A DNA stretch of 64,000 nucleotides from assembly GCF_011045215.1 (NCBI RefSeq), contig NZ_CP049201.1. The stretch is one strand, 5' to 3'. How positions within the stretch are numbered: position 1 is the stretch's first letter; each line of letters opens with the position of its first letter. The notes under the pieces are model-generated. The model saw only the letters and a program-made list of their open reading frames with translations. It was not told where the DNA came from and did not search any database. Shown in pieces: positions 2,191 through 22,351 of this stretch. The stretch comes from Escherichia coli. Lineage in GTDB: Bacteria > Pseudomonadota > Gammaproteobacteria > Enterobacterales > Enterobacteriaceae. A program made the position numbers and the translations under genes.

Positions 2191-3237
2191 TTAAAAATCT
2201 TTCGTTATTTCTCTGACCGTCTGATTAAAACGTTCCTCTTCCAGTTCCACGCCAATCGCCCTGCGTCCCAGCAACAGTGCCGCTTTTATCGTGGAACCTG
2301 ACCCCATAAAAAAATCTGCGACCAAATCGCCTGGACGGCTGCTGGCAGTAATTATCTGACGCAACATATCCGCCGGTTTTTCACAGGGATGTTTGCCCGG
2401 ATAATACTGCACGGGCTTGTGCGTCCAGACATCCGTATAAGGAACGACAGCCGATACGGAAAAATAACGCCGCAGTGATTTGTATTCCTCCAGCAGGCTG
2501 ACATATTGCCGGTTCAGTTCGCTGTATGTGCTGACCAGCTGGTGATGTGGCTGCTCCAGTTCACCGCGCTGGTGTTTTTCTGCCGCCACACGTGCAAACA
2601 GCGCCTGCAGTTTACTGTAATCGGCCTCATTCGGTAACTGCCACTGACTGGTACCAAACCAGTGCGAAACCATGTTTTTCTTTCCGGTGGCTTCAGCTAT
2701 CTGTTTTGACGTTATCCCCAGTGATTCACGCGCATCACGGAAGTAAGAAATCAGCGGGGCCATCACGTGCTGTTTAAGCTCGCGCCCCTTTGCCGCATAG
2801 CCGTCATTTTTTGGCTGGTATGGCCCCTGATAATGTTCAGCAAACAGAATGCGCTCTGTTGCCGGGAAATACGCCCGCAGGCTTTCCTTGTTGCACCCGT
2901 TCCAGCGTCCGGACGGCTTCGCCCAGATAATGTGGTTCAGCACATTAAAGCGCTCACGCATCATGATTTCGGTGTCAGATGCCAGGCGATGACCACAGAA
3001 CAGGTAAAGACTTCCGGCAGGCTTCAGTACCCGCCAGAACTGCGCCAGACATCGGTCCAGCCATTGCAGGTAATCATCGTCGCCCTTCCACTGGTTATCC
3101 CAGCCCTCGGGCTTCACTTTAAAGTATGGCGGGTCTGTGACTATCAGATCGACAGAGTTTTCCGGTAATGTCCGGATAAATTCCAGGCAATCCGCGTTGA
3201 TTAACTCACAACTGGATATTTTTACAGTATTAGCCAT
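2191..3237 (-). CDS. DNA methyltransferase (N6-adenine or N4-cytosine type), orphan
   Basis: 348 aa with DPPY motif near N-terminus (LIVTDPPYF) and FxGxG AdoMet motif near C-terminus (FFMGSGST); no nuclease recognised alongside. Confidence 0.85.
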   Translation of the reverse strand: MANTVKISSCELINADCLEFIRTLPENSVDLIVTDPPYFKVKPEGWDNQWKGDDDYLQWLDRCLAQFWRVLKPAGSLYLFCGHRLASDTEIMMRERFNVLNHIIWAKPSGRWNGCNKESLRAYFPATERILFAEHYQGPYQPKNDGYAAKGRELKQHVMAPLISYFRDARESLGITSKQIAEATGKKNMVSHWFGTSQWQLPNEADYSKLQALFARVAAEKHQRGELEQPHHQLVSTYSELNRQYVSLLEEYKSLRRYFSVSAVVPYTDVWTHKPVQYYPGKHPCEKPADMLRQIITASSRPGDLVADFFMGSGSTIKAALLLGRRAIGVELEEERFNQTVREITKDF

Positions 3238-10658: not shown

Positions 10659-11429
10659 TCACTTTTCTGATGCAACACGGCGGGAAGAATCAGTCATCTG
10701 CCGGAAAATATCCCGGTGCTTGTTCAGCTCCCGCAGCGCAGCGCAGACACGTTCCCACTTCCGGATATGACTTTTTGCCCGGCGCAGTTCACGGTTTGCC
10801 ATATGTAGCGATGGCAGCATTACATAGTCGGTATGTTTTTCGGTGAACAATGGCAGTGACTGCACAATATCCGCCACCGTTTCTGTTTTAATTTCTTCCT
10901 GTGTTGCAACCTCCTGTACTGGTAACGCAACCCCCGCTGGCTGAGGAAAGGCTTTACCATCAGTTTCCGCTACCGATGCGGCTTTCAGTTCTGCTGGTAA
11001 ATTCTCGCCTGGCATGCAGTAACGAAATTTACCGTTCTGATTAACGCGTGCCAGTCGCCCTGTTGAGGTTACTACCGCCAGCGTGGAAGCAACCTTGCGA
11101 ATGCTGACACCGAACTTACCCGCCAGTTCCTCACACGTTTTAGCCCCCTCCTGGCCGATAAACTCAATCATCATGTCAGCGGTAACTTTTTGTTCGCCCA
11201 CCCCGGTTAGCACATCCGGTGCTTCAGATTGTACTGGCTGCTCTTCGGTTACCCCGGATTCACCTTCGCCAGCCAGAAACCAGGTGTGGCCAGTTTTATC
11301 AACGACGCCATTTCTTTTGAGTTCCCACAGCTCGTTCAGAACTTCTTCACGACTGATTTCAAGTCGTGCGACCAGTTCCACCGACGTGGCTTTTCCCATT
11401 GCTTTCAGTGCATCAAAAACGGTCTCCAT
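10659..11429 (-). CDS. hypothetical phage protein (DUF1627-like)
   Basis: 256-aa ORF following the helicase loader. Confidence 0.5.
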
Positions 11430-11468
11430 TAAAATTTCCTCCCGGTAAAATTATTTCTCAATTCCTGG

Positions 11469-12197
11469 CTAACCAACATTTGAACGCCAGCTCTCCCAGT
11501 TAAAATTCACCCAGCGACCACCGTTCATGGTCATGCGGTCCATCACGCGCTCGCCAAGCAGCGTATTCATTGCCGTATGGTTCAGGTTCGTCAGCATCCC
11601 GACGCTGTGCATCGAGGCTGTTCTGCGATCGACTATCTGGTTCAGTGTGACCTGTTCGTTACGCGTATCCCGCTGCATACCAATTTCATCCAGGACAAGC
11701 AGGTCAACTTCACACAACCCCTGCAAAAATTTTTCGCCCGAGTTTTTGTTGTCGTAGTTGCCGTGTAACGCCAGCATCACATCCGCCACCGTCACCACAA
11801 TCACGCTGCGACCTTTCGCCAGAAGATGGTTGCCAATGGCTGCTGCCAGATGATTCTTTCCGGTACCCGGCTTACCGCTGAACACGAAATTTGTGCATCC
11901 GGTCATCATTTCTTCCGCGATGGATTTTGCCTGGCTCAGCGCGTGGCGTTGGCCATCGTTCTTCACCTGGTAATTCGCAAACGAACACTTCTGGTGCAAC
12001 AGTTGGATACCGGAACGCTTCATAATTTTCTCCACCCGGATCTGGCGATTCTGGCGGTTAATTTCCTCACTACGCTTTCGCCCTTCTGCAAGCTGCCACT
12101 CTCGCCACTCGTCCACTGTCCGGTACGGCGCGGTTACATGCTGCGGGGCCAGCTTACGGATACGCTCAAGAACACCACCTGCCGCAATATTTTTCAT
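11469..12197 (-). CDS. DnaC/IstB-like replicative helicase loader
   Basis: Walker A FSGKPGTGKNHLAAAIG and Walker B LLVLDEIG; position equivalent to lambda P / Rac YdaV. Confidence 0.85.
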   Translation of the reverse strand: MKNIAAGGVLERIRKLAPQHVTAPYRTVDEWREWQLAEGRKRSEEINRQNRQIRVEKIMKRSGIQLLHQKCSFANYQVKNDGQRHALSQAKSIAEEMMTGCTNFVFSGKPGTGKNHLAAAIGNHLLAKGRSVIVVTVADVMLALHGNYDNKNSGEKFLQGLCEVDLLVLDEIGMQRDTRNEQVTLNQIVDRRTASMHSVGMLTNLNHTAMNTLLGERVMDRMTMNGGRWVNFNWESWRSNVG

Positions 12198-12203
12198 AAC
12201 CCG

Positions 12204-13313
12204 TTACCCCCTGAATCCCGGCGGAATTTCGGTATCCGGTTCAGAAATATGATTCACACAACGCTGGTTGTTCGTGCCGCTTACCGGGAGCAACCAGGGG
12301 TTTTCAAAATTCCGGTCCGGTCCAAAAAACGTCGTCGCTCGCTGAACAAATTCCGTTCCCGCTTTCCCGGTCGCCGCCAGGTATCTCGCGTAACGCCTCA
12401 CACCATCCAGCATGGTCTCTGGTGGCACCCCCTCGCGCAATCTGGCCTTCCAGGCACTGAATGCGGATTTCTTCGGGTTTGCCCCGGCACGCAACGGGTA
12501 TTCCCGCCAGACCTGTTCGAACACATCCGGATAATCCACTCGTCCCACAGGCCGCCCGGTGTTTTCCGGGACTACCCGATCGGCTTCCCGCTGAATGGCG
12601 GAATCGGCTTCAGGCTGCTGCAGTTGGTGTGATTGCTCCGACCCTGCGGTCATCACCTGCTGCACAGCGCCCGAATCGGTTTTCAGCGCATACGCCGAAT
12701 CGGCTTCCGGTGTCGTGCCTGCTGGCTGACCAGAATTTACGGTCTGAACATCCCCTGCCTGGTTCGTGGTGTTTTTTTCGCCATGAGCTATAGTGTTTTT
12801 GTCCTGTTCTTTCTCCTGCTCCTGTTCCTGTTCTTGGCTTCGAAGCCCCTTAAAAGCCCCTTCGAAGCCCCTTACCGAATTTCGGCTATTATTCCGCCTC
12901 ACATCCAGATGGAAATCCGTTTTATATCTGTCGTAAAACGCTGACAGAAAAGCGTTTTCAGGTAATGATGCATACTCATTCCTGACACCTGCACAACGGT
13001 TATCGCCAGGCTTCAACGTTTCCCCAACCTGCCAGGCTGCCATTTCATGGACCCAGACCATCTCGGCATCATGGTCATAGCTACAAAAACCAGCTTCAAC
13101 AGCCCTTTTAAGCCCCTTTGAAGCCCCTTCCAGACCAAGCCCGGTTTCATGAGCAAGGTATAAAACTGGCAGGTAATACAAACCCAGCATATTTGCGTGA
13201 GGGGATGTCATCAGGTAAAAAGCAACAACTTGCGCTTCTGCACCCGCCTTTCTAAGTTCTCTCCCCGTTTCTCCCAGCCAGAATCGCGGAGAAACTTTTG
13301 CGTAATCACGCAT
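12204..13313 (-). CDS. replication initiator (O-like / YdaU-like) with internal iterons
   Basis: Track ORF trimmed to ATG 13311-13313 preceded by GAGG; immediately upstream of the helicase loader; contains iteron-like repeats and an acidic QEQEQEQEKEQ linker. Confidence 0.65.
   Translation of the reverse strand: MRDYAKVSPRFWLGETGRELRKAGAEAQVVAFYLMTSPHANMLGLYYLPVLYLAHETGLGLEGASKGLKRAVEAGFCSYDHDAEMVWVHEMAAWQVGETLKPGDNRCAGVRNEYASLPENAFLSAFYDRYKTDFHLDVRRNNSRNSVRGFEGAFKGLRSQEQEQEQEKEQDKNTIAHGEKNTTNQAGDVQTVNSGQPAGTTPEADSAYALKTDSGAVQQVMTAGSEQSHQLQQPEADSAIQREADRVVPENTGRPVGRVDYPDVFEQVWREYPLRAGANPKKSAFSAWKARLREGVPPETMLDGVRRYARYLAATGKAGTEFVQRATTFFGPDRNFENPWLLPVSGTNNQRCVNHISEPDTEIPPGFRG
12843..12873. 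repeat. iteron-like direct repeats, three AAGCCCCTT copies at 11-bp period
   Basis: Copies at 12843-12851, 12854-12862, 12865-12873 inside the O-like gene. Confidence 0.6.
13101..13129. repeat. second iteron cluster (AAGCCCCTT x2 plus a degenerate copy)
   Basis: AGCCCTTTT at 13101-13109, then AAGCCCCTT at 13110-13118 and 13121-13129. Confidence 0.5.
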
Positions 13314-13530
13314 GGCTACCTCATCTGGTGCCGAACCTTCCTCCGGATATAATCTGTGGTTCCCAATCGACAGAACCAGAGGAGGTTCGACATGTATTTT
13401 TTGAAAAGCCTTTATCAGGCTCATGTATTAAATGTTGCAGCAACAAACCGCTGGTGTAACAGCCCCGAAATGCTCCCGGATTACAGAGCCTGGCTGCGCG
13501 CCGAAACATACCTTCGTCTCGACATATTGA

Positions 13531-14040
13531 TTAGCGAACTTCAAAAAGAGACTGCATCCATTCATAACCTTCAGGGTATCGACGCTGTTCGCATTCTGGT
13601 ATCGCGCCATAGTGCTCTCTCAATAATTGAAGTGCGTCATCTCTCTTTTTCTGAACTGATTTTCTTGCTTCAACCAGCTCTGGAATCAGCGAATATCCCA
13701 CCGAAAGTGATCCAATACCCACCTCATGTTGACGAGCAGTTACAAGATGTGCCATACAACCAGCGTGCTGGATTGACTCCCTGCTCAGAGGCTGAATGGG
13801 ATCACTCTCTGCTGAAGAAATACCAAGATTTGTATAATCCTCAATAAGCCCGGCACACGCTTCTGCATCAGCCAGCTTTATTCTGGTTTCCTTGCGCTGC
13901 TCTCTGGCTGACAAACGCCAGAGCAGCGCATTAGCTTTATGTATCAACCACTCTGCCAGCTCCACATCAGATAAACCGCCACGCCAGATGTGCGGACTGT
14001 TTTCGTAAACGCTCAGTGTCAATTTTTTGTCATTACTCAT
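13531..14040 (-). CDS. hypothetical protein between YdaT-like and O-like genes (strand ambiguous)
   Basis: 169-aa ORF from ATG 14038-14040, 13 nt after the YdaT-like stop, weak RBS; overlaps a plus-strand ORF that has a strong SD. Confidence 0.4.
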   Translation of the reverse strand: MSNDKKLTLSVYENSPHIWRGGLSDVELAEWLIHKANALLWRLSAREQRKETRIKLADAEACAGLIEDYTNLGISSAESDPIQPLSRESIQHAGCMAHLVTARQHEVGIGSLSVGYSLIPELVEARKSVQKKRDDALQLLREHYGAIPECEQRRYPEGYEWMQSLFEVR

Positions 14041-14053
14041 ATTTATTACCCAA

Positions 14054-14479
14054 TTAATGCACAGCCAGAGTGTTTCCTGCCGGGCCACCACGATTCATCT
14101 GATCGAACAGAACGATCGCTGATGCAACGAAATCATCAATATCTTTCACCAGCCGTTCCTTCGTCTCTACCAACTCCCGAAAATAAGCGGAACTGTGGCT
14201 GCGCATTCGGGCCACCAGCGGAGGCGGCATTGCTTTTTCGATCGCTGGTAACAACGCCTGAATTTTTTTAACCGCATCAGGGGTGTCTTTATCCAGCCAA
14301 CGGAAAATTTTCTGGGTATTACGAGCCAGCGCTTCCGGATGCCTGTCGTCATATAGCTCCGGGAACGTCATACCCAGCTCAAAATAAGCCTGGGTTATTT
14401 CAGCTGCCGGAACTTTTTCACCGTCCGGATGCGCCCAGGCATTCATCGCCATACGGATGTGTTCATGCTTGATTTTCAT
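14054..14479 (-). CDS. YdaT-like regulator (CII-like position)
   Basis: 141 aa; N-terminus MKIKHEHI and length match remembered Rac YdaT; follows the Cro-like gene with a 17-nt overlap. Confidence 0.7.
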   Translation of the reverse strand: MKIKHEHIRMAMNAWAHPDGEKVPAAEITQAYFELGMTFPELYDDRHPEALARNTQKIFRWLDKDTPDAVKKIQALLPAIEKAMPPPLVARMRSHSSAYFRELVETKERLVKDIDDFVASAIVLFDQMNRGGPAGNTLAVH

Positions 14480-14738
14480 GAATCAACTCCGGTGTATTTG
14501 GTGTGTTAGCCTTATCTCCAGCAGGCAACCCGTCAGTTGGATTCGGGTATAAATCTGGTCGCAATTCATGAGGAGTCACCCCAGTTGCAATATAAATTTG
14601 ACGAACCCGTTCCCCCGTCGGAACTCGACCATTGTATTCATTTGCCCATTTGTGTATTTGAGATGGCCAAGCCCCTATTGCACGCCCTAGTGGACGAATA
14701 CCACCAGCAATCTTTATTGCTTTGTCCAATGCTGTCAT
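14463..14738 (-). CDS. Cro/YdaS-like HTH regulator
   Basis: 91-aa ORF divergent from the repressor gene; GGAGG upstream; helix-turn-helix-like segment GIRPLGRAIGAWPSQIHKW. Confidence 0.65.
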   Translation of the reverse strand: MTALDKAIKIAGGIRPLGRAIGAWPSQIHKWANEYNGRVPTGERVRQIYIATGVTPHELRPDLYPNPTDGLPAGDKANTPNTPELIHENQA

Positions 14739-14807
14739 ACAACCTCCAGTTCAACTAATCATAACAATTGTTCACTTAAAACGAACATAAGTCAACACCT
14801 CGAGGAA

Positions 14808-14835
14808 TTGTTAGTGTTCACTGAACGGTTATAAT
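14808..14835 (+). promoter_or_regulatory. sigma70-like promoter for the repressor gene; transcript probably leaderless
   Basis: TTGTTA (14808-14813), 16-nt spacer, TATAAT (14830-14835); ATG at 14842, only 6 nt after the -10; palindrome GTTCAcTGAAC (14816-14826) in the spacer. Confidence 0.4.
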
Positions 14836-14841
14836 TGCTAA

Positions 14842-15231
14842 ATGGACATGAGAAAAAAGCAATACGACACCCCGCTAGCAGAAAGGTTAGATGCGATCTC
14901 TCAACAGCATCATTTAAGTGGTTCAGATTTAGCGCGTATCGCTGGTGTAGGTCGTTCATCAGTCAACGCATGGAAAAAAAGAGGAACAATCAGTAAAGAT
15001 TCCGCAGCCAAAATTGCAGAAGCCACAAACGTTTCCCTTTCTTGGCTACTGACAGGGAAAGAAGAGACAAATAGAGAAGCGCTTGATGATGACGAGAAGG
15101 CCCTGCTTGATGTTTACAGAAACCTGCCACCTGTAGAACGTAGAAATATGCTGGCAGCTTTTCAAATGCGACTTCAAAAACTGACCGAATTTTACTCAGA
15201 ATACGTCGACCCAATAACACGACAAAAATAA
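14842..15231 (+). CDS. prophage repressor-like HTH protein (XRE family, no peptidase domain)
   Basis: 129 aa; HTH segment LSGSDLARIAGVGRSSVNAWKK; divergent from the Cro-like gene across a 103-bp operator region. Confidence 0.65.
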   Translation: MDMRKKQYDTPLAERLDAISQQHHLSGSDLARIAGVGRSSVNAWKKRGTISKDSAAKIAEATNVSLSWLLTGKEETNREALDDDEKALLDVYRNLPPVERRNMLAAFQMRLQKLTEFYSEYVDPITRQK

Positions 15232-15399
15232 TTCTTTATTTTACAGAATCATACCGCCGCAAGGCGGTTTTTTTTACCTTTTACGTATTCATAATGTTGA
15301 CTTTTGTTCACCCAAAGAGAACAATGTATTCCATCAAAGCACAACGGTGCGACAGGTCTTAGTTCCGCTACCCCGGCGTTAAGGGGAAATGAGGTCAAC

Positions 15400-15555
15400 A
15401 TGGATACTATCGATCTTGGCAACAACGAATCTCTGGTATACGGCGTGTTCCCCAACCAGGACGGCACGTTCACCGCCATGACGTATACCAAAAGCAAAAC
15501 GTTTAAAACCGAATCTGGCGCGCGTCGCTGGCTGGAAAGAAACTCAGGTGAGTGA
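15400..15555 (+). CDS. small protein, YdaF-like
   Basis: 51 aa from internal ATG of the track ORF; resembles remembered Rac YdaF and occupies the same position next to the repressor. Confidence 0.45.
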   Translation: MDTIDLGNNESLVYGVFPNQDGTFTAMTYTKSKTFKTESGARRWLERNSGE

Positions 15556-20949: not shown

Positions 20950-21198
20950 ATGGCAAGACTTATTCTGCTCACTGAGTGGGCAAAAGAGGAATTCAGCGAT
21001 CCGGTCCCTACTCCGGGCACGTTAAGTAAATACGCTAAAGCCGGAATGATATTTCCTCTCCCCAAAAAAGTTGGAAGACACTGGCGAGTGGATCCACGAG
21101 CTCGCTTTGTCGGAATGGTAAACAAGCCGGAGGTGATCGCCACAGATCACCCTGCTTTGAAGAGGATACTGGAAGATGGCGCGCCCGCGAAAATATAA
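20950..21198 (+). CDS. xis: excisionase (lambda Xis-like)
   Basis: 82 aa, overlaps int start as in lambda; GMIFPLPKKVGRHWRVDPRARFVG resembles lambda Xis. Confidence 0.7.
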   Translation: MARLILLTEWAKEEFSDPVPTPGTLSKYAKAGMIFPLPKKVGRHWRVDPRARFVGMVNKPEVIATDHPALKRILEDGAPAKI

Positions 21199-22306
21199 AA
21201 CCGAAGTTCCGGGACTATCTCCGTATTTTGACAAAAGAAATAACAAAGTTTACTGGCGTTACAGGCATCCCATAACAGGCAAAAATCACGGTCTCGGCAG
21301 TATTGACCAGAAACTGGCAGAAACTATTGCAGCAGAAGCGAACAGCCGTCTTGCCAGGCAGCAAATGGAACAAATGCTCAGTCTGCAGGAGAAAATTATT
21401 AATGATACCGGCGGTTCATCAACCGTTTCCATTTTTCTGAATAATTACAGAAAAATTCAACAGGAAAGATATGAAAACGGAGAGATCAAACTCAACACGC
21501 TGAAACAAAAAGCGGCCCCTCTCAGGGTATTTGATGAACGTTTTGGCACCAGACCGTTAGATGCCATAACTGTAAAAGATGTGGTATCGGTGCTGGAAGA
21601 GTACAAGGCCAGAGGACATAACAGAATGGGGCAAATTTTCAGGAAGGTACTGATCGATGTTTTCCGGGAAGCTCAGCAAACAGGCGATGTTCCGCCAGGC
21701 TTTAACCCTGCAGAATCGGCAAAAAAACCGCAGGTGCGGATATCAAGACAGCGACTGACTTTTGATGAGTGGATGATGATTTATAACGCAGCGGAAAAGG
21801 ATGGTTACTTTTTACAGCGCGGCATGCTGCTGGCACTGATGACAGGCCAGCGCCTTTCAGATATTTGCAAAATGCAATTTTCGGATATCCGGGATGGTTA
21901 TCTTCATGTCGAACAGCAAAAAACAGGAACCCGGATTGCCATCCCTCTTGCTCTGCGTTGCAATAAATTAAATCTCACCCTGGATGATGTGGTGTCATCC
22001 TGTCGCGATTGCGTTCTTAGTCCGTGGCTATTGCACCACCATCATGCGAAAGGGACAGCCAAGCGCGGCGGGATGGTTAAGCCAGCAACGTTAACAGTTG
22101 CATTTAAAAAAGCGCGGGATTCTGTGGATTACAACTGGCGTGCTAATGGCACCCCACCCTCTTTCCATGAGCAGAGATCTTTATCAGAGCGATTGTTCAG
22201 AGAGCAGGGAATTGATACCCAAATTTTGCTGGGTCATTCGAATCAAAAAATGACCGATATTTACAACGATGCACGCGGCAAGGAGTGGAAAAAACTGGTC
22301 ATTTGA
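21176..22306 (+). CDS. int: tyrosine integrase (lambda Int family)
   Basis: 376 aa; LTFDEWMMIYNAA...LALMTGQRLSDICKMQFSDIRDGYLHVEQQKTGTRIAIPLAL aligns with remembered lambda Int catalytic region. Confidence 0.9.
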   Translation: MARPRKYKTEVPGLSPYFDKRNNKVYWRYRHPITGKNHGLGSIDQKLAETIAAEANSRLARQQMEQMLSLQEKIINDTGGSSTVSIFLNNYRKIQQERYENGEIKLNTLKQKAAPLRVFDERFGTRPLDAITVKDVVSVLEEYKARGHNRMGQIFRKVLIDVFREAQQTGDVPPGFNPAESAKKPQVRISRQRLTFDEWMMIYNAAEKDGYFLQRGMLLALMTGQRLSDICKMQFSDIRDGYLHVEQQKTGTRIAIPLALRCNKLNLTLDDVVSSCRDCVLSPWLLHHHHAKGTAKRGGMVKPATLTVAFKKARDSVDYNWRANGTPPSFHEQRSLSERLFREQGIDTQILLGHSNQKMTDIYNDARGKEWKKLVI

Positions 22307-22313
22307 TGACCAG

Positions 22314-22347
22314 TTTTGCAGAGGAGTTTTGCAGAGATTTTGCAGAG
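22314..22347. repeat. three direct TTTTGCAGAG repeats between int stop and ompW stop (att arm region)
   Basis: Copies at 22314-22323, 22327-22336, 22338-22347. Confidence 0.6.
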
Positions 22348-22351
22348 AAAA

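Follow-up and report, generated by a model that had tools for sequence, protein, structure and literature searches.

The window analysed here, a 64-kb stretch (64,000 nucleotides) of the Escherichia coli contig NZ_CP049201.1 (assembly GCF_011045215.1), contains on its minus strand a prophage gene for a replication initiator, and within this gene lie two clusters of a 9-bp repeat that reads AAGCCCCTT on the plus strand. An initial annotation made from the letters of the DNA had proposed the repeats as a candidate replication origin, and every computational test agrees with iterons of an origin within the initiator gene. We consider it probable that the two clusters are the iterons of the replication origin of this lambdoid prophage, situated inside the gene for its initiator. 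The locus comprises the following features.

11469–12197, minus strand: gene for a DnaC/IstB-like AAA+ helicase loader, directly downstream of the initiator gene.
12204–13313, minus strand: replication initiator ("replisome organizer") gene, 369 amino acids from Met38; the enclosing open reading frame (ORF) reaches 13424.
12204–12799, minus strand: coding region of the linker and the C-terminal domain, which form a separate module presumed to recruit the loader or helicase.
12801–12842, no strand assigned: hexanucleotide purine/pyrimidine tract, (CARGAR)n in the sense of the gene and (TCCTGT)n on the plus strand, coding for SQEQEQEQEKEQ; period 6 in Tandem Repeats Finder.
12843–12873, no strand assigned: distal cluster of putative iterons, three exact units with a period of 11 bp, each in a different reading frame.
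12874–12990, no strand assigned: A+T-richer stretch between the clusters, adjoining the distal one, GC 0.40–0.43; alternative candidate unwinding element.
12885–13313, minus strand: codons for the N-terminal winged-helix domain (residues 1–143 from Met38), the presumed origin-binding domain.
13099–13129, no strand assigned: proximal cluster of putative iterons, exact units at 13110 and 13121 and a degenerate unit at 13099, with an 11-bp period.

A search of both strands of the window finds AAGCCCCTT exactly five times, on the plus strand at 12843–12851, 12854–12862, 12865–12873, 13110–13118 and 13121–13129. All five copies fall within 287 bp, and there are none elsewhere in the 64 kb on either strand. 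Dinucleotide-preserving shuffles give an expectation of 0.49 copies and a maximum of 3, and 0 of 100 shuffles reach 5; when one mismatch is allowed, the remainder of the window is at chance level. As an independent check, Tandem Repeats Finder gives period-11 arrays at 12843–12874 and 13103–13129, together with a period-6 array, (TCCTGT)5, at 12802–12833. In the sense of the gene the unit reads AAGGGGCTT, with an 11-bp period and about 255 bp between clusters. The three distal copies at exact 11-bp spacing described in the initial annotation are exact matches starting at 12843, 12854 and 12865, and the "two to three" copies that it placed in 13101–13129 resolve into the two exact units at 13110 and 13121 and one degenerate unit at 13099–13107 (sense AAGGGCTGT), which matches at 6 of 9 positions. 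As it had also stated, all five exact copies are inside the gene, within the ORF at 12204–13424 on the minus strand. Its description of the repeats as flanking the segment for QEQEQEQEKEQ needs correction: this segment (12801–12842) adjoins the distal cluster on the outside, on the 3′ side in the gene, and what the two clusters do flank is the coding sequence for the N-terminal domain's second half.

The proximal cluster, with the sense strand GAAGGGGCTTcaAAGGGGCTT, codes for EGASKGL within the predicted recognition helix H3 of that domain, and the distal cluster for part of a disordered linker, RGFEGAFKGL. Both clusters of the window thus translate to EGA(S/F)KGL, as they would if a peptide motif, EGAxKGL, had been duplicated internally, or if the repeats were chance low-complexity sequence, in either case with no function as DNA. 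The 11-bp period is, however, not a multiple of three, and the units occupy all three reading frames (2, 1 and 0 in the distal cluster, 1 and 0 in the proximal one).

The relatives of the gene bear on the same alternative. We assembled 165 loci from IMG/VR, public assemblies and phage records, which reduce to 74 non-redundant genes with GC contents of 0.40–0.71. Across these 74 genes, units of the form AAGGGGC(T/A)T stand at +185 and +196 from the ATG, and one to three distal units follow at about +440–475. Exact 9-mers occur at 14.0 per kb in these two zones compared to 0.04 per kb in the other 247 kb of the loci. In 19 of these genes the distal cluster runs direct, in 45 it is exactly reverse-complemented, 4 have a mixed cluster and 6 one that is not exact; the DNA motif stays even as the peptide encoded there shifts from EGAFKGL to EAPSEPL or to APSKPH. 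Five named phages were also compared with the window, to which their DNA is only 67–76% identical: Klebsiella phage ST974-OXA48phi18.2, Shigella Shiga toxin (Stx) phage POCJ13, Acinetobacter phage YMC/09/02/B1251 and Escherichia phages Fraca and LMessi. Across the five, the proximal GAAGGGGCTTnnAAGGGGCTT hardly varies. Two of them, POCJ13 and the Acinetobacter phage, have distal units that are exactly reverse-complemented (reading AAGCCCCTT in the sense of the gene), with the register unchanged and the peptide EAPSEPL. The Acinetobacter phage (locus L003) has in addition AAGCCCCTT and AACCCCCTT, 11 bp apart, at its positions 1468–1487, just upstream of the initiator start, which brings it to three arrays in total; this extra pair could serve autoregulation or extend the origin.

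The proximal peptide is conserved as EGA[ST]KGL, and the synonymous sites beneath it were examined in 58 genes, with the same residues elsewhere in the domain as the comparison. GAA is used in 58 of 58 genes (57% for Glu elsewhere in the domain), GGG in 58 of 58 (25%), AAG in 58 of 58 (63%) and CTT in 54 of 58 (15%), and this freezing of codons persists across hosts of opposite codon bias. Because the units lie in three frames, the synonymous sites are frozen and the distal cluster is inverted in most relatives, the repeats are constrained as DNA and not as a peptide repeat. A peptide duplication or chance origin, which is further contradicted by the shuffles and by the loss of the distal peptide in relatives that keep the motif inverted, was rejected, and we find it scarcely credible. 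A conserved mRNA motif was rejected as well, since the distal cluster is inverted in relatives and no Rfam family was found in a scan of 11400–15400. The spacings from array to array (232, 255–256 and 267 bp) share no helical phase.

An AlphaFold2 model of the N-terminal domain, built on a 35-sequence alignment (predicted local distance difference test score 83, predicted template modelling score 0.76), gives a confident fold for residues 5–143. Its winged-helix core consists of H1 (25–36), S1 (45–47), H2 (50–57), H3 (61–73), S2 (77–80) and S3 (85–88), and residues 144–166, which include those encoded by the distal array and the QE codons, are disordered in the model. The predicted recognition helix H3, LEGASKGLKRAVE, is encoded by 13095–13133, which is the proximal array itself. 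Foldseek against the PDB returned generic winged-helix matches only (E > 0.04), and a profile of the domain found no match among PDB sequences.

A second class of units occurs in a distant branch of the N-domain family (loci L170–L254), 31% identical to the window protein, which carries AAAGGGTT in both clusters. This branch includes Klebsiella phage ST13-OXA48phi12.4 and 80 IMG/VR loci, with a DnaC-like partner, and is laid out as two units at +176/+187 and two at +408/+419 with an 11-bp period, followed by (CAGGAA)n; its more divergent members have AAAGGGTT-type units with direct or inverted distal arrays. The proximal units code for the helix, as ERVSKGF in this branch and EGASKGL in the window, so co-variation between helix and proximal unit is automatic. 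The distal array, which lies in a non-conserved disordered segment, tracks the proximal array in both unit classes. A representative-library search, which revealed how large the family is but listed members of at least 48% identity only, added no further specificity classes.

The N-terminal domain and the repeats behave as one module. Positions 12204–12799 are 95% identical to phages Tritos, Evi and others with unrelated N-terminal halves, and the module boundary in the window is at 12799, just beyond the hexanucleotide tract. Across the family, the N-domain and the repeats are joined to varied C-domains, and the partner genes next to family members encode a DnaC-like loader, DnaB, lambda P, a primase-helicase or a Prim-Pol/AAA_25 protein. 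The N-domain is the sole constant companion of the repeats, which argues that it reads them, and such modularity is expected of an origin-specific initiator module. The link between units and N-domain is nevertheless one of co-occurrence and thus correlative, and the units might be bound by another factor, from the host or from the phage, and not by the product of the enclosing gene. We think this quite unlikely, given that the neighbouring genes vary among relatives where the N-domain is always there, that one unit sequence is found in hosts from Acinetobacter to those of Xanthomonas-like GC contents, and that the unit changes along with the N-domain subfamily.

Phage Tritos (locus L255, OV696610.1, gene 726–1796) has the C-terminal half of the window gene in common and an unrelated N-domain, which is annotated as an SPP1-type "N-terminal phage replisome organiser" domain. 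Its gene carries another unit, GTCACG, at intervals of about 10–11 bp at +123–170, with five more at +385–435, then an AT-rich purine tract, (ACAGATAAAGAT)n, at +436 to +480, and then the shared C-terminal half. Because Tritos repeats the layout with another unit and an unrelated N-domain, the design of two clusters plus a tract is general among these phage initiators, with the module junction directly after the tract. One further family member (locus L087, ENA ERZ1332749 tig00000002, gene 2501–3004) precedes a lambda-P-like gene and meets a stop codon within the hexanucleotide tract, which leaves roughly 480 nt uncalled ahead of P; this early stop is probably a frameshift, through a long-read assembly error or in a pseudogene.

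The hexanucleotide tract of the window opens in the 11-bp register with a half-unit, AAGCC. Nearly all relatives have such a tract, 18–78 nt of (CARGAR)n located 15 nt after the start of the last distal unit and usually translated as (QE)n. The reading is not always the same: locus L086 has the tract in another frame (PKPRAGTRARTGAGE) with the downstream C-domain intact, (CAGGAA)5 in L251 is translated as TGTGTG, and in L252 and L253 the reverse complement (CCTGTT)4–5 is translated as PVPVPV. QE-type runs occur in 215 of 349 family proteins, GT/GA/RT/RA-type runs in 19, PV/PA-type runs in 13 and PE in 9. That the tract is kept in other frames and on the opposite strand suggests that it serves as DNA and is more than a flexible linker. 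The case is weaker than that for the iterons, because slippage-prone repeats change frame freely and PV/PA linkers are common anyway. The tract is a candidate unwinding or loading zone, and its region shows a family-wide dip in GC of about 0.07; a dip of 0.08–0.11 is found at the gene position of 12874–12990. The three least stable 40-bp windows inside the gene (13155–13194, 12899–12938 and 12773–12812) all flank the arrays. CTG is the preferred start triplet of E. coli DnaG, and the complement of the tract carries CTG every 6 nt.

The junction with Tritos-type genes falls at the end of the tract, and the tract connects the N-domain to many C-domains, at times in another frame or orientation. 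Both observations would also fit a recombination linker, in which the conserved DNA, chiefly the tract and the adjoining units, served the exchange of N- and C-modules and had no role in replication. This leaves unexplained the proximal cluster inside a folded domain, the 11-bp period, the in-place flips of the distal cluster and the co-variation of the two clusters. The tract of Tritos moreover differs in sequence, so the tract is no patch of homology common to these modules, and we judge a linker of this kind very unlikely.

Upstream of the initiator gene are cII/YdaT-like, cro-like and cI-like genes, and near 14767–14835 two promoter-like sequences form a divergent pair. With these genes, the promoter pair and the loader gene around the initiator, the locus is the replication module of a lambdoid prophage. 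The units lie within a transcribed gene downstream of a pR-like promoter, and might be operator-like sites through which the initiator or another regulator throttles transcription of the replication operon, with the origin elsewhere. Iteron-binding initiators often autoregulate, and the extra pair of units just upstream of the start codon in the Acinetobacter phage would suit such a role. Operators normally overlap promoters, however, whereas the units here are 185 and 440 nt into the gene, and the bipartite layout with its repeat tract, moving with the N-domain among replication partners, fits an origin better. A scan of the replication region for further iteron-like arrays found none, and consensus matches for internal promoters and terminators were no more frequent than chance. 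We regard operator sites as an unlikely explanation, and an origin within the initiator gene as the probable one.

The start of the initiator at Met38 (13313) follows from homologues, PHROG profiles and RefSeq, whose coding sequence begins 111 nt within the ORF and is labelled "hypothetical protein" or "DNA-binding protein". The protein matches PHROG 1701, "DnaD-like helicase loader", at 3.8e-145 over residues 38–406 of the ORF, and also several "replication initiation protein" PHROGs, including PHROG 3729. A Pfam search of the 406-residue ORF at E ≤ 0.01 matched no family, PF04492 (Phage_rep_O) included. The "O-like" label of the initial annotation thus holds for function and gene order but not for sequence, which has no detectable relation to lambda O. 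The loader, named "ATP-binding protein" in RefSeq, matches PF01695 IstB_IS21 (5.5e-18) and PF00308 Bac_DnaA (6.8e-08).

The last 24 codons of the initiator gene (12204–12275) encode a tail, ...ISEPDTEIPPGFRG, that is similar to the C-terminal end of E. coli DnaT (primosomal protein I). The tail matches positions 156–179 of NCBIfam NF002770 and, over the last 22–24 residues only, PDB entries 6aep, 2ru8 and 9zbt. The likeness to DnaT is confined to these residues, about 24 in number, and an orthologue of DnaT was rejected, as NF002770 scores 17.7 bits against a cut-off of 201 and over residues 383–406 only. A relative of the AAAGGGTT class in L170 also has a DnaT-like tail, which may be a shared peptide contacting the DnaB–DnaC machinery. 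The resemblance of these 24 residues to DnaT accounts for the label "primosomal protein I" in some phage records.

Other features of the window were noted alongside. A second repeat family, GAATCGGCTTC-like, has four copies at 12579–12710, spaced 24, 72 and 24 bp (multiples of 3); in the linker of the C-terminal module they code for EADSA-type peptides, and Tritos has them too. Two long ORFs just upstream of the initiator overlap, one on each strand: 13392–13847 (plus), "ECs1072 family phage-associated protein" in RefSeq, and 13531–14091 (minus), which matches PHROG 8304 at 5e-119. Three tandem copies of (A/G)TTTTGCAGAG lie at 22312–22348, directly after a 376-residue ORF (21176–22306, plus strand) with a C-terminus resembling a tyrosine integrase, and are candidates for arm-type sites bound by the integrase or for one arm of an attachment site.

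We infer the binding of the protein to the units, the place of unwinding and the start of replication at this locus from the DNA and its relatives, and propose the following mechanism. The initiator would bind the units via its own N-terminal winged-helix domain, and the 11-bp spacing would put the proteins on approximately one face of the DNA. Proteins at both clusters would then oligomerise, looping or wrapping the roughly 245 bp between them, and the resulting strain may open neighbouring DNA, either at the purine-rich (CAGGAA)n tract that adjoins the distal cluster or in the A+T-richer DNA lying between the two clusters. The C-terminal domain would recruit the host DnaB through the DnaC-like loader encoded downstream.

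Several points weigh against this interpretation. Among the co-variation data, only the distal array is independent, and only two classes within the N-domain family are compared. The Fisher tests of the frozen codons give p values of 1e-11 to 1e-35, which overstate independence because the sequences are related. No DnaA boxes were found in the replication region, and the four matches in the window are all far off and at chance level. A duplex-stability scan revealed no distinct unwinding element: the candidates have GC contents of 0.40–0.47 and nearby intergenic DNA is less stable. The tract in GC-rich relatives is (CAGGAG)n. Finally, our literature search found no account of the initiator family or its repeats, a search that left out most subscription journals, so that an older description is possible; two Eru papers about non-lambdoid Stx replication regions are silent on both iterons and this module.

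The closest parallels are lambda and SPP1. In lambda and Stx phages the origin, composed of iterons and an AT-rich tract, lies in the central part of the O gene, the O protein assembles on it, and lambda-type origins have four to six iterons in one block (PMC7466680). Like lambda ori and oriStx, the window locus would have its origin inside the initiator gene, with several repeats followed by an easily opened, strand-asymmetric tract, where binding and opening are predicted for the window. The predicted division of labour is also that of lambda O, with an N-terminal domain for DNA binding and a C-terminal one that recruits a loader coded by the next gene, and in both the region is transcribed from a pR-like promoter. 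There are clear differences. The window initiator has no sequence homology to lambda O, as the absence of a PF04492 match indicates. Its units are 9 bp long at an 11-bp period in two clusters about 255 bp apart, compared to the single block of longer iterons, about 18–19 bp, in lambda. One of its clusters lies within the codons of the DNA-binding domain, and the orientation of the distal one is free among relatives. Its tract, (CAGGAA)n, is not clearly AT-rich, and its loader is DnaC/IstB-like and not P.

In phage SPP1, gp38 (G38P) binds direct repeats of oriL inside gene 38, beside an AT-rich unwinding element, and replication involves a loader and a DnaB-type helicase (PMC6316719). The oriL repeats of SPP1 thus also lie in the initiator's own gene, and SPP1 too has two separated repeat regions, but oriR is about 13 kb from oriL (PMC6316719), compared to 255 bp between the clusters of the window. 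A link to SPP1 is provided by Tritos, which bears the SPP1-type domain annotation and shares the C-terminal half of the window gene. The N-domain of the window has no Pfam match, and the hosts of its family are Proteobacteria, whereas SPP1 is a Bacillus phage. Iteron plasmids, with winged-helix initiators of the RepA, pi and RepE type, differ as well: the units of the window are half as long and its candidate origin sits in coding DNA, while the structural match is that of a generic winged helix for which CRP/FNR regulators score higher, with no match in sequence. Our best reading is that the locus would work like lambda ori or SPP1 oriL, outside the O family.

The N-terminal module is present in 476 of 5,426 complete E. 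coli genomes (9%), O157:H7 included, in the Stx phages POCJ13, 75/02 Stx and phiSTEC1589-Stx1c, and in Klebsiella, Acinetobacter and Ralstonia phages. The family amounts to at least 4,114 protein clusters at 50% identity. A plasmid collection gave 10 matches only, mostly prophages in large replicons or mislabelled chromosomes, with no sign of use as a plasmid replicon. The principle of an origin inside its initiator gene is established in lambda and SPP1, and for this widespread family of putative origins in Proteobacteria no published description was found. The principle will hardly surprise a specialist, but the family is large, medically relevant and unannotated, its gene usually being called "hypothetical", "DNA-binding protein" or, wrongly, "primosomal protein I". 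More tentatively, and with some doubt on our part, the locus could typify a family of proteobacterial phage origins that is large and as yet uncharacterised, distinguished by an array that codes for a helix and by a functional tract.

Nearly all mechanistic knowledge of lambdoid replication derives from the lambda O/P type, and the replication of lambdoid prophages sets phage yield and, in Stx phages, the dose of toxin. A defined origin would make a minimal replicon open to test and would allow origins to be annotated from sequence alone in thousands of phage genomes. It also points to a decoy sequence, which could titrate the initiator and so keep the phage from replicating. The units AAGGGGCTT, AAAGGGTT and GTCACG would form a natural specificity series for the co-evolution of initiator and origin. 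The unusual features are the overlap of the predicted recognition helix with its putative binding site and the frame-independent tract. If this more tentative reading is correct, the (CAGGAA)n next to the distal array, apparently kept whatever its frame or strand, would function as DNA in unwinding, in helicase loading or in priming, and the recognition helix would be coded by the very array that it recognises, so that any change of specificity would have to alter protein and target in the same nucleotides.

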